Source: Acidobacteriota bacterium
Lineage (GTDB): Bacteria; Acidobacteriota; Terriglobia; 20CM-2-55-15
Direction of reading: 5' to 3'
Assembly (NCBI GenBank): GCA_022821145.1
Contig: JAJEEE010000084.1
Location: forward strand, 10,295-74,294
Length of the DNA stretch: 64,000 nucleotides
The notes beneath the pieces were generated by a model. That model was given only the letters and a program-made list of their open reading frames with translations, did no database searches and was not told where the DNA came from. Shown here one piece after another: positions 62,389 to 64,000 of the stretch (the first letter of the stretch is position 1; every line of letters begins with the position of its first letter). Made by a program: the position numbers and the translations under genes.

Positions 62389-62832
62389 ATGAGGATTCTG
62401 ACCGCGCTGTTCATGGTGATCGCGTGGACGGCGCCGGCGGGGGCCCAATCCGATGACTCGGCGAAGCGCCGTCACGTCCTTCCGCATATCGCCGACGGGG
62501 ACGGGTGGCAATCGTCCCTTCTGGTCACGAACGTATCGCCCGCGGCAGCTTCCTGCACGGTCCGGTTGACGGGGCTGACCGCGGCGCGGTTCGAATCCGC
62601 CGCGGGCCTGTTCAGGACTGGTTCGACCGCGACGTTCGCTCTTCGGGGCTCCGGCGGCTTCCTGGAGTGGCGCTCCAGGAACGAGTCGGAGTTGGCCTCC
62701 GGCTACGCCACCGTCGATTGCACCGAGCCGGTCGTGGCGCAGGTCGTGTTCGCGTCGGTCGACGACACGGGCCGAAGGCTGGGAATGGCCACGGTATTCA
62801 GCTCGCAAGCCGGTAACAGGTTCCGGTTCTGA
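62389..62832 (+). CDS. First module (signal peptide + A1) of a modular tandem-repeat secreted protein; terminates at a frameshift relative to the downstream modules
   Basis: MRILTALFMVIAWTAPAGAQ signal. HVLPHIADGDGWQSSLLVTNVS...WRSRNESELASGY...GMATVFSSQAGNRFRF*. The homologous A2 module reads through into module B. Confidence 0.5.
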   Translation: MRILTALFMVIAWTAPAGAQSDDSAKRRHVLPHIADGDGWQSSLLVTNVSPAAASCTVRLTGLTAARFESAAGLFRTGSTATFALRGSGGFLEWRSRNESELASGYATVDCTEPVVAQVVFASVDDTGRRLGMATVFSSQAGNRFRF

Positions 62833-63870
62833 CGCCCGCGGCCACGCTCGGACTCGCCATCGCGAACGACACGGGTTACGAGGCGGTCTGCTGGATGGAC
62901 CTCGAAGGCCATCCTTCCCGAATAGTGACTCGGTTCCGACTCGATGTGCCCTCCAAGACCTCCATGGCGCGCATGCTCAACGAGCTCGTTTCGATTCCCG
63001 AAACGTTCTCCGAAGGCGCGTTGACCATGAATTGCACTCGGGAAGTCACACTCGTCGGGTTGCACTTCGAGCTGCGGCCCGACGGCGGCATCGTCACCTT
63101 CAACACGCTGCCGCCGACGCTTCTCGGCAGCAACTACGTCGACGGCCAACGCGAATCGGCGGTCGACGCAACGGCGAGACGCGTTCACGTGGTGCCGCAC
63201 ATCGCCGACGGGGGCGGGTGGCAGTCCTGGCTGATCGTCACGAACGTCTGGCGATACGAAAGCGTGTGCGTGCTGGACTTGCACGGCTTGGCGGCGGACC
63301 GGTTCGAGGAAGCCGACGAGGTTTCCGTGCCGGTTTCGACAGCCACCTTCACACTTCCGGAATCGGGCGGGCACTTCGTATGGCGCAGTCGGAACGAGTC
63401 GGCATTGGCGTCCGGCTACGGCATTCTCGACTGCACGTGGCCGGTCACGGTGCAGCTCGTGTTCGCGTCGATCGGCGAGGGTGGCGAGCCGACGGGGATG
63501 GCCACGGTCTTCAGCTCCCAGGCCGGATCGAAGTTCCAGCTGCCGGTGCTGACGCCGGAAGCCGCGGTCGGATTTGCAATCGCCAACGATACGGACGTCG
63601 ACGCCGCCTGCCGTCTCGGCGTCGCAGACCGGCGCCGGGTGAACGTGGGCGAAGCTGTCCTGTCGGTTCCATCCAGGTCCAACTACGCGCAAATGCTCCG
63701 GGCCGCGATCGCGTTGCCGGAAACGTTCCCGGGAGGAACGGCCACGATCGCGTGCGACCCACAGGTCGCGACCATCGGACTGCATTTCGAGTTGAGTGCA
63801 GACGGCGCCATCGATACGTTCAACACGCTCCCGCCGGCCGTTCTGGAGGCGTCTGCCGAGCGAACCCTTG
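62440..63870. repeat. About 700-bp direct tandem repeat (two A-B units, about 70-80% identical) underlying the modular protein
   Basis: Compare CACATCGCCGACGGGGACGGGTGGCAATCGTCCC (62474) with CACATCGCCGACGGGGGCGGGTGGCAGTCCTGGC (63198). Compare GGAATGGCCACGGTATTCAGCTCGCAAGCCGG with GGGATGGCCACGGTCTTCAGCTCCCAGGCCGG. Confidence 0.6.
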
Positions 63871-64000
63871 CCGCGCGGGCGGCGTCGGACCGGGCTGCGC
63901 TGGAGGCTTTCTACGATGCGGCCGGCGGTCCGGGTTGGGTCGATCGCACGAACTGGAAAACCGACGCGCCTCTCCGGGAGTGGCACGGAGTGTGGACGAA
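62817..64000 (+). CDS. Continuation (modules B1-A2-B2 plus start of an LRR N-terminal cap) of the tandem-repeat secreted protein; open to the window end
   Basis: Stop-free frame to 64000. B modules: (Q/K)VPVLTP(A/E)A.LGLAIANDT...LHFEL..DG.I.TFNTLPP. A2: HVVPHIADGGGWQSWLIVTNV...WRSRNESALASGY...GMATVFSSQAGSKFQ. Ends ...[34 protein letters not shown], a typical bacterial LRR cap. Confidence 0.45.

Follow-up and report, generated by a model that had tools for sequence, protein, structure and literature searches.

Introduction

The ASRAH superfamily has been defined around ASRT and TM1070 and is characterized by an eight-stranded sandwich with a Trp at the start of strand 1 and a near-invariant Asn ending strand 2. 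Strand 2 lines a cleft that is predicted to bind sugars (for the founding members, too, this is a prediction), and secreted members always come as dyads or tetrads (De Souza, Iyer and Aravind, 2009; PMC2739507). Besides these domains, the 'plant-type' (eukaryote-like) leucine-rich repeat (LRR) surface proteins of host-associated bacteria and frameshift pseudogenes originating from short tandem direct repeats are the described systems closest to the gene analyzed here. This gene is located at the end of a 64,000-nucleotide stretch of the Acidobacteriota contig JAJEEE010000084.1 (referred to as the window), where a sequence-only reading had noticed a modular secreted protein with a frameshift at its first module junction. 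Our analysis points to a single gene for a secreted LRR protein, which probably carries a genuine, recent and non-programmed inactivating deletion of 7 nt, that is, an ordinary case of strain-specific pseudogenization.

A comparison with frameshift pseudogenes from short tandem direct repeats reveals no essential difference: one 7-nt unit is lost, a close relative has an intact allele and a stop follows within 5 codons. What stands out is the youth of the lesion, with no secondary lesions in 2.9 kb. With the bacterial 'plant-type' LRR proteins the gene shares the 24-residue repeats (LxxLxxLxLxxNxLtGxIPxELGxL), the N-terminal cap (ALxAxYxATgGxxWxxxxNWxtxxPLxxWxGV), a Cys-containing C-terminal cap and matches to Pfam LRR_1/4/8/14. 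It differs from them in that four predicted ASRAH-like sandwiches precede the LRRs, an immunoglobulin-like (Ig-like) domain splits the arrays and the gene is frameshifted. The relation of these sandwiches, which we call A and B modules, to the ASRAH superfamily was judged against TM1070 (PDB 1NC7), the Anabaena sensory rhodopsin transducer (PDB 2II7) and Pfam PF07100/DUF1362, and is taken up below together with the predicted fold.

Layout of the disrupted gene

The region 62389-64000 was translated in three forward frames, which gave the following parts; no further copy of the A-B module is present in the window.

62389..62832, + strand: open reading frame 1 (ORF1), the truncated product of 147 aa, consisting of signal peptide, A1, a 2-residue out-of-frame tail (RF) and TGA
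62389..62445, + strand: Sec-type signal peptide MRILTALFMVIAWTAPAGA, identified by eye, with putative cleavage after AGA
62467..62814, + strand: domain A1, a predicted TM1070/ASRT-like eight-stranded beta-sandwich
62817..62823, + strand: deletion site, with one CAGGTTC heptamer compared to two in tandem in the intact allele; the frame shifts by -1 here
62817..64000, + strand: downstream frame, limited by the window; on the longer scaffold L001 it goes on to the equivalent of window position 65756
62820..63125, + strand: domain B1, the second beta-sandwich of dyad 1, cut off from the upstream half of the gene (tblastn)
63177..63530, + strand: domain A2, from module alignment; the AlphaFold2 model of module 2 has 8 strands at residues 12-121
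63531..63845, + strand: domain B2, the second domain of module 2
63888..64000, + strand: cap motif of 37 residues before the LRR array; on L001 the LRR_1/4/8/14 Pfam matches start directly after it

Translation bore out the description of ORF1 as a signal peptide followed by A1 and a TGA stop. The product reads MRILTALFMVIAWTAPAGA/QSDD...SSQAGNRFRF-stop (the slash marks the putative cleavage site), equally written MRILTALFMVIAWTAPAGAQSDDSAKRRHVLPHIADGDGWQ...MATVFSSQAGNRFRF-stop. Inspection of its N-terminus by eye revealed a single basic residue, a hydrophobic core and A-G-A preceding Q, and the homologs have the N-terminal pattern ...ALPAxAQ/xDETAK in common with ORF1. The second frame is likewise open as the sequence-only reading had stated, from 62817 to the end of the window, with codons at positions divisible by 3. 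It encodes B1, which begins QVPVLTPAATLGLAIANDT..., then A2, which passes in frame into B2 (FQLPVLTPEAAVGFAIANDT...), and finally the cap motif. In its entire length the downstream frame holds B1-A2-B2, LRR array 1, the Ig-like domain and LRR array 2.

Modules 1 and 2 share 70-80% identity at the DNA level and about 55% at the protein level, and the conserved Cys residues and the WRSRNES motif, which had been noticed before, are present. Measured from start to start, the direct repeats in the DNA have a spacing of 720 nt after the junction but of 713 nt before it; therefore copy 1 lacks exactly 7 nt relative to copy 2, where the sequence-only reading had estimated about 7. A tblastn search using module 2 matched copy 1 as two pieces in different frames.

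A 7-nt deletion and an intact ortholog

A scan of one genome per GTDB species retrieved a syntenic ortholog on JAJEDW010000099.1 ('Acidobacteria bacterium isolate p16x33bins.48', L003), which is 96% identical to window 62250-64000 in blastn. The junction reads GCCGGTAA CAGGTTC CAGGTTC CGGTTCTGACG in L003 compared to GCCGGTAA CAGGTTC CGGTTCTGACG in the window. A second intact protein is encoded on an ENA scaffold (L037) from the neighboring BioSample SAMN22237342, which is 99.98% identical to L003, has the same gene order and also carries the two-unit junction. In both, the sequence GGTAACAGGTTCCAGGTTCCGGTTCTG (GGTAA-CAGGTTC-CAGGTTC-CGG) keeps the frame continuous (G N R F Q V P V L T P), and an uninterrupted ORF of 1124 aa reads ...GNRFQVPVLTPAATLG...; the L003 protein is 97.6% identical to the window protein with its frames joined. 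The intact ortholog in the sister lineage confirms that the gene is interrupted in the window, one of the options the sequence-only reading had offered. At the level of 90% protein clusters the ORF1 product is the sole member of its cluster, and the 953-aa remnant called from the downstream frame falls into one cluster with the two intact 1124-aa proteins (P0256, P0257).

The broken allele was recovered in two further assemblies by an exact look-up of the ORF1 product, namely on L001 (ENA scaffold KELL22-1_SAMN22237343 scaffold_1200, 35.7 kb) and on L002 (a Logan contig from SRR16351690). Both are identical to the window across 62389-64000, including the frameshift, and over the whole shared sequence window and L001 differ at 2 of 11612 positions. 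Exact-pattern scans of JGI metagenomes for either heptamer allele retrieved no further alleles and one unrelated chance match (L036).

The intact junction agrees with copy 2 of the gene (GSKFQLPVLTP) and with the family consensus (FQFPVLTP), which indicates that the two-unit state is ancestral and the window allele derived. From these alignments the missing 7 nt are best described as a lineage-specific deletion of one unit of (CAGGTTC)2 exactly between A1 and B1. That slipped-strand mispairing removes single units from tandem direct repeats is textbook knowledge, and we infer that mispairing during replication is the likely cause here. The earlier suggestion of repeat slippage thus stands for the heptamer, but not for the 720-nt module, and two modules are present in both alleles. 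CAGGTTC occurs 16 times in the whole window compared to about 6 expected, a number reached by 0 of 100 shuffles; this excess is probably caused by codon or oligonucleotide usage in a high-GC genome.

Over 3368 nt, 59 substitutions separate window allele and intact allele, and no indel other than the 7-nt gap distinguishes them. The ratio of nonsynonymous to synonymous substitutions (dN/dS; Nei-Gojobori) is 0.49 in the upstream part (142 codons) and 0.23 in the downstream part (978 codons), and compared to the intact ortholog the 2.9 kb of the downstream frame contain neither extra stops nor secondary indels. The low dN/dS together with the lack of stops and indels suggests that purifying selection acted on the gene during almost the whole time since the alleles separated and hence that the lesion is young. 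As in a typical frameshift pseudogene, an intact full-length ortholog exists and the shift truncates the product and removes conserved domains. Signs of advanced degradation, such as more indels and stops or a dN/dS near 1, are not seen, which fits a very recent lesion and is no proof of lost function.

The flanks of the gene were compared over window positions from about 57000 to 64000 with L003 and L037 (L001 4494-14602). On the left flank, comprising a HAD hydrolase, an ABC ATPase, the MacB permease and the sulfatase, the window lineage is 85-90% identical to L003/L037, and from about window position 62390 through the LRR gene and the downstream aminotransferase the identity is 95-99.4%. 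This mosaic divergence hints that the two lineages have recently exchanged a segment of 4.5 kb or more by homologous recombination.

The full-length gene and its neighborhood

Extension of the contig, proposed as a check in the sequence-only reading, was possible on L001, where the downstream frame continues to 980 codons before a TGA and the full architecture becomes visible. The order is B1, A2, B2, cap motif, about 11 plant-type 24-residue LRRs, a Cys-containing C-terminal cap, the Ig-like domain, a second cap motif, about 4 further LRRs and a final C-terminal cap. Pfam matches in the extension exceed the cut-offs for LRR_1 (134.7 bits), LRR_4 (94.1), LRR_8 (83.2) and LRR_14 (80.9), and the Ig-like domain has weak matches to Big_9 and He_PIG under their cut-offs. 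Of the LRR part, the window itself contains only the cap motif. LRRs do follow this motif, which the sequence-only reading had called a leucine-rich-repeat N-terminal cap, but the protein does not end there: only the window does. The cap motif has no match to Pfam LRRNT_2 (PF08263) at E<=10, and we use the label because the motif lies directly before both LRR arrays and is found in the same position before the LRRs of homologs (P0005, P0043, P0227).

The gene upstream is a sulfatase in divergent orientation (60849-62279, - strand; Pfam Sulfatase with E 1.5e-43 plus SGSH_C), about 110 nt from ORF1. It has a signal-like N-terminus of its own and its adjacency to the LRR gene is kept in L037. Further neighbors are a MacB-type ABC exporter upstream and an aminotransferase downstream on the opposite strand, and the gene neighborhood shows no sign of an operon. 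A PIN / PhdYeFM toxin-antitoxin pair is located about 3 kb 3' of the LRR gene (L001 16622-17289) and also present in L037, which in addition contains a 773-aa DUF5916/CBM9-like gene (10632-12953) between aminotransferase and methyltransferase that is missing in the window lineage (L001 about 14600-14760). The long ORFs 58054-61275 (- strand), 59178-61955 (+ strand) and 62703-63986 (- strand) of 1073, 925 and 427 aa overlap real genes in different frames or on the opposite strand and have Arg/Pro/Gly-rich nonsense translations; we read them as high-GC shadow ORFs. The last of these, antisense to the gene discussed here, was considered as a gene and discarded because of the strong homology on the sense strand.

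A family of A-B modules

When the first 500 residues of the joined protein were used to search for homologs, 286 matches were obtained, all of them continuous through SSQAGxxFQFPVLTPxATLGFAIANDT, and no Pfam match covers their A/B region. Using HMMER against 1.84 billion representatives we found 419 clusters (50% identity) at E<=1e-3 and 123 at E<=1e-30, so that the family comprises at least 419 clusters at this identity level. Nearly every match in this search covers A and B as one complete unit, mostly with one or two such units in a protein. The fusion partners in the family vary and include LRR arrays, Big_9, FG-GAP, LDL-receptor class B, FGE-sulfatase, PF27111 and an unannotated C-terminal domain of about 170 aa. 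Members with a named or traceable source all come from metagenome-assembled genomes (MAGs) of Acidobacteriota, Terriglobia, Bryobacterales or 'Ca. Versatilivoraceae', and there are several paralogs per genome, with at least 5 loci in the L003 MAG. The names of MAGs (SB0661, RHO and APA bins) might hint at sponge symbionts, an idea that carries no weight in the present analysis.

A first hhalign comparison of A and B with low-diversity alignments (effective number of sequences, Neff, about 2) returned a 19-column match with 9.7% probability. After enrichment with relatives of about 30% identity, the profiles aligned over 84 columns with 92.9% probability (E 3.8e-7). Motifs at equivalent positions are xLxVTN..C and GFAIAN..C, GYATLDC..PV and GSATVSCDQPV, and GMATVFS and TFNTLPP. 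The homology of the profiles indicates that A and B are diverged duplicates of one domain, that the gene encodes four copies of it and that the A/B junction lies between two homologous domains. Two Cys occupy equivalent positions in every domain and are invariant or nearly so, a pattern that fits one disulfide per domain and an extracytoplasmic location.

In a tblastn comparison of the module with 33 related loci, about 50 modules run contiguously over the A/B junction in one frame, and the only exceptions are the lineage of the window and one paralog. The latter, located at 4001-5400 of L034 (Terriglobia MAG CBDCKA010000002.1), is truncated just past the A/B junction (...FQFPVLQPAATLGVRGGR-stop) with an IS3-like transposase frame directly after, and is disrupted by a mechanism other than the deletion in the window. 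Several homologs (P0227, P0244, P0206, P0207, P0242) have their first residue at the conserved Met of GMATVFSSQ or close to it, shortly before the A/B junction. These starts are likely the result of contig breaks or of start codons chosen by the gene caller in the most conserved stretch shared by paralogs. P0227, P0244, P0206 and P0252, which start with MATVFSSQ or end at the junction, were considered as further split genes and set aside, as they look like partial sequences from contig edges or Met starts; P0210 is ORF1 itself. None of them was counted as a recurrent frameshift.

Predicted fold

The sequence-only reading could not assign the modules to a known domain. This remains true for Pfam (E<=1; ORF1, in-window downstream frame and module 2) and NCBIfam, neither of which matches the A/B modules, but at the level of the predicted fold an answer emerges, as both A and B are modeled as diverged TM1070/ASRT-like sandwiches. 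The AlphaFold2 model of module 2, calculated from a 66-sequence alignment, is all-beta with eight strands in residues 12-121 and eight in 125-227 (predicted local distance difference test, pLDDT, 77.9; predicted template modeling score, pTM, 0.60). In a Foldseek search only the chains of 1nc7 and 2ii7-9 were found at probability 1.00, with target-normalized TM-scores of 0.55-0.68.

The likeness to the ASRAH superfamily includes the domain size of about 105-115 residues and, in the model, an eight-stranded sandwich of about 110 aa with the topology of TM1070. It extends to an Asn that closes strand 2 and is followed by a tight turn; this Asn is invariant in the 66 sequences (N32 of strand 24-32 in A; N146 of strand 139-146 in B). 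The secreted dyads and tetrads also have a counterpart, as A and B are adjacent and the A-B dyad occurs twice, giving four domains. In contrast, the hallmark Trp after a polar residue in strand 1 is replaced by a near-invariant Phe (F12 in A, F129/F131 in B; by eye), and W24 and W78, the Trp residues of A that are invariant or nearly so, sit elsewhere than at the strand-1 position. A sequence-profile match to PF07100 or to PDB sequences and the SHEshChhN ligand signature are missing, each A or B domain has two conserved Cys, and A has a W-x-[ST]-[KR]-N-E motif of its own. The fusion partners differ as well: LRR, Ig-like, FG-GAP, LDL-receptor class B and FGE-sulfatase domains here, amidases or actinobacterial lipoproteins in the described families. 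Taken from the models, the A/B modules probably work like ASRAH domains and are probably distant members of this superfamily.

Alternative explanations

Recoding had been put forward by the sequence-only reading as a way in which the gene might still be expressed. Programmed -1 ribosomal frameshifting or a related process would then produce the full-length protein from the one-unit allele, and the downstream frame, open for 980 codons with a dN/dS that looks selected, would be in line with this, as would the 16-nt overlap of both frames (62817-62832, C AGG TTC CGG TTC TGA), which would permit a -1 shift before the TGA. This overlap contains, however, no X XXY YYZ slippery heptamer and no homopolymer such as an A or T run that would allow transcriptional slippage, and no favorable -1 re-pairing exists for its Phe or Arg codons, since the P-site tRNA-Phe or tRNA-Arg would mismatch. 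A stimulatory RNA structure was not found in the 121 nt of 62810-62930, where the minimum free energy is no better than that of shuffled sequences (z = +0.43; 128 of 200 shuffles fold at least as well), and the region 62000-64000 has no Rfam match. As the ortholog and all paralogs are unshifted, a shift signal would have to have arisen together with the deletion. As far as sequence evidence goes we reject recoding, which seems scarcely credible for this locus. Another possibility is a phase-variable contingency locus, in which the heptamer tract toggles between one unit (OFF) and two units (ON) and switches a surface LRR protein. The only indel between the close alleles is indeed one repeat unit inside the ORF of a surface-type protein, and one study contains both states in its sister samples SAMN22237342 and SAMN22237343. 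On the other hand, known phase-variable repeats are much longer than two units, and the return from one unit to two needs a de novo duplication instead of slippage, so that the change practically runs in one direction. The same peptide is encoded by copy 2 of the gene and by every paralog examined, in no case with a tandem heptamer, and the two alleles belong to lineages with 10-14% divergence in the left flank and not to variants of one clone. Phase variation at this site is consequently most improbable in our view.

An artefact of sequencing, assembly or consensus building, with two heptamers and a plain single ORF in the real genome, might be suspected at a short tandem repeat, the more so as the deletion-bearing contigs may share one run and the SRR16351690 Logan contig and the SAMN22237343 ENA scaffold could be the same data. 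It is nevertheless quite improbable: three assemblies from different pipelines agree on the deletion, the two-unit allele was assembled correctly twice in the sister sample, and a tandem duplication of 14 nt, which is well inside k-mer and read length, is generally not collapsed by short-read assemblers. The remaining alternative accepts the deletion and assumes a functional gene fission into a secreted A1-only protein and a cytoplasmic B1-A2-B2-LRR protein starting from the ATG at 62895. For A1 alone a complete and confident beta-sandwich is predicted (pLDDT 87.6, pTM 0.81), and the ATG, which has a weak GAGG upstream, is used by the gene caller. But A and B are almost always found together across the 419 clusters of the family, and the A-only or B-only matches are short fragments resembling contig edges. 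A product of the downstream frame would come without a signal peptide and without strands 1 and 2 of B1, and an extracytoplasmic fold is suggested by its eight conserved Cys and by its LRR caps. We regard a functional fission as unlikely.

Discussion

We conclude that the intact allele is a single gene for a secreted, probably cell-surface protein of about 1124 aa, composed of a signal peptide, two A-B dyads (four homologous sandwiches, each likely containing a disulfide), about 11 LRRs, an Ig-like domain and about 4 LRRs. The protein would be exported by the Sec pathway. By analogy with ASRAH, its four sandwiches may bind carbohydrate or another small ligand, which could sit on the own cell envelope or in the surrounding matrix, and the general properties of the domain families suggest that the LRR arrays and the Ig-like domain would provide binding to proteins or to a host surface. 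In the window lineage one heptamer unit between A1 and B1 was lost, likely via slipped-strand mispairing, and the frame change of -1 would stop translation 5 codons further on. The signal-bearing product that remains would be a mature fragment of 128 aa with A1 only. This fragment is probably functionless, because the family shows no architecture with A alone. The other 980 codons lack both a signal peptide and a convincing start; they are presumably not translated and would represent the remnant of a young pseudogene. In annotation, the called genes of 147 aa and 953 aa ought to be treated as parts of a single disrupted gene.

Several points weigh against an inactivation as outlined here. The first ATG of the downstream frame at 62895, inside B1 and after its first two strands, has a weak GAGG 11 nt upstream and was chosen by the gene caller, so that a signal-less product is possible. 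The downstream dN/dS of 0.23 is also compatible with continued expression, and the 45 downstream substitutions mostly reflect the history before the deletion and cannot separate a gene that has just died from one that is still expressed. Furthermore, the site could be polymorphic in the sampled population, and L001, L002 and the source of the window may share one read set. The fold assignment comes from AlphaFold2 models (pLDDT 78 and 88) and not from sequence-profile matches: PF07100 was not matched by ORF1 or the in-window frame (Pfam, E<=1), and the family profile had 0 matches among PDB sequences at E<=10. Ligand binding by the dyads is drawn wholly from analogy.

On a broader scale, the A-B dyad might represent an undescribed extracytoplasmic branch of the ASRAH superfamily with dozens of paralogs per genome in Acidobacteriota MAGs, serving as a common glycan-binding handle by which interchangeable host-interaction domains are anchored or targeted. 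The frameshift would then be a snapshot of a rapid birth-and-death turnover among these surface proteins. We put this forward tentatively, as an idea that is possible and at present rather less than probable. In this context, another paralog is cut by an insertion sequence (IS) element.

The frameshift itself is of little weight, as it most likely represents a young strain-specific loss-of-function allele. Intact and broken alleles in sister samples also amount to a natural knock-out, which offers a way to learn if the bacteria can do without the protein in situ. More useful is the description of the family: a large group of proteins without a Pfam or NCBIfam model can now be described, on the basis of the predicted structures, as tandem disulfide-bearing TM1070/ASRT-like dyads combined with variable adhesion or eukaryote-like domains. 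If the models are correct, this assignment would extend the ASRAH superfamily to a new architecture and a new phylum, and a role of the dyads as carbohydrate-binding anchor modules provides a testable hypothesis for many secreted proteins that are so far annotated as 'hypothetical'.

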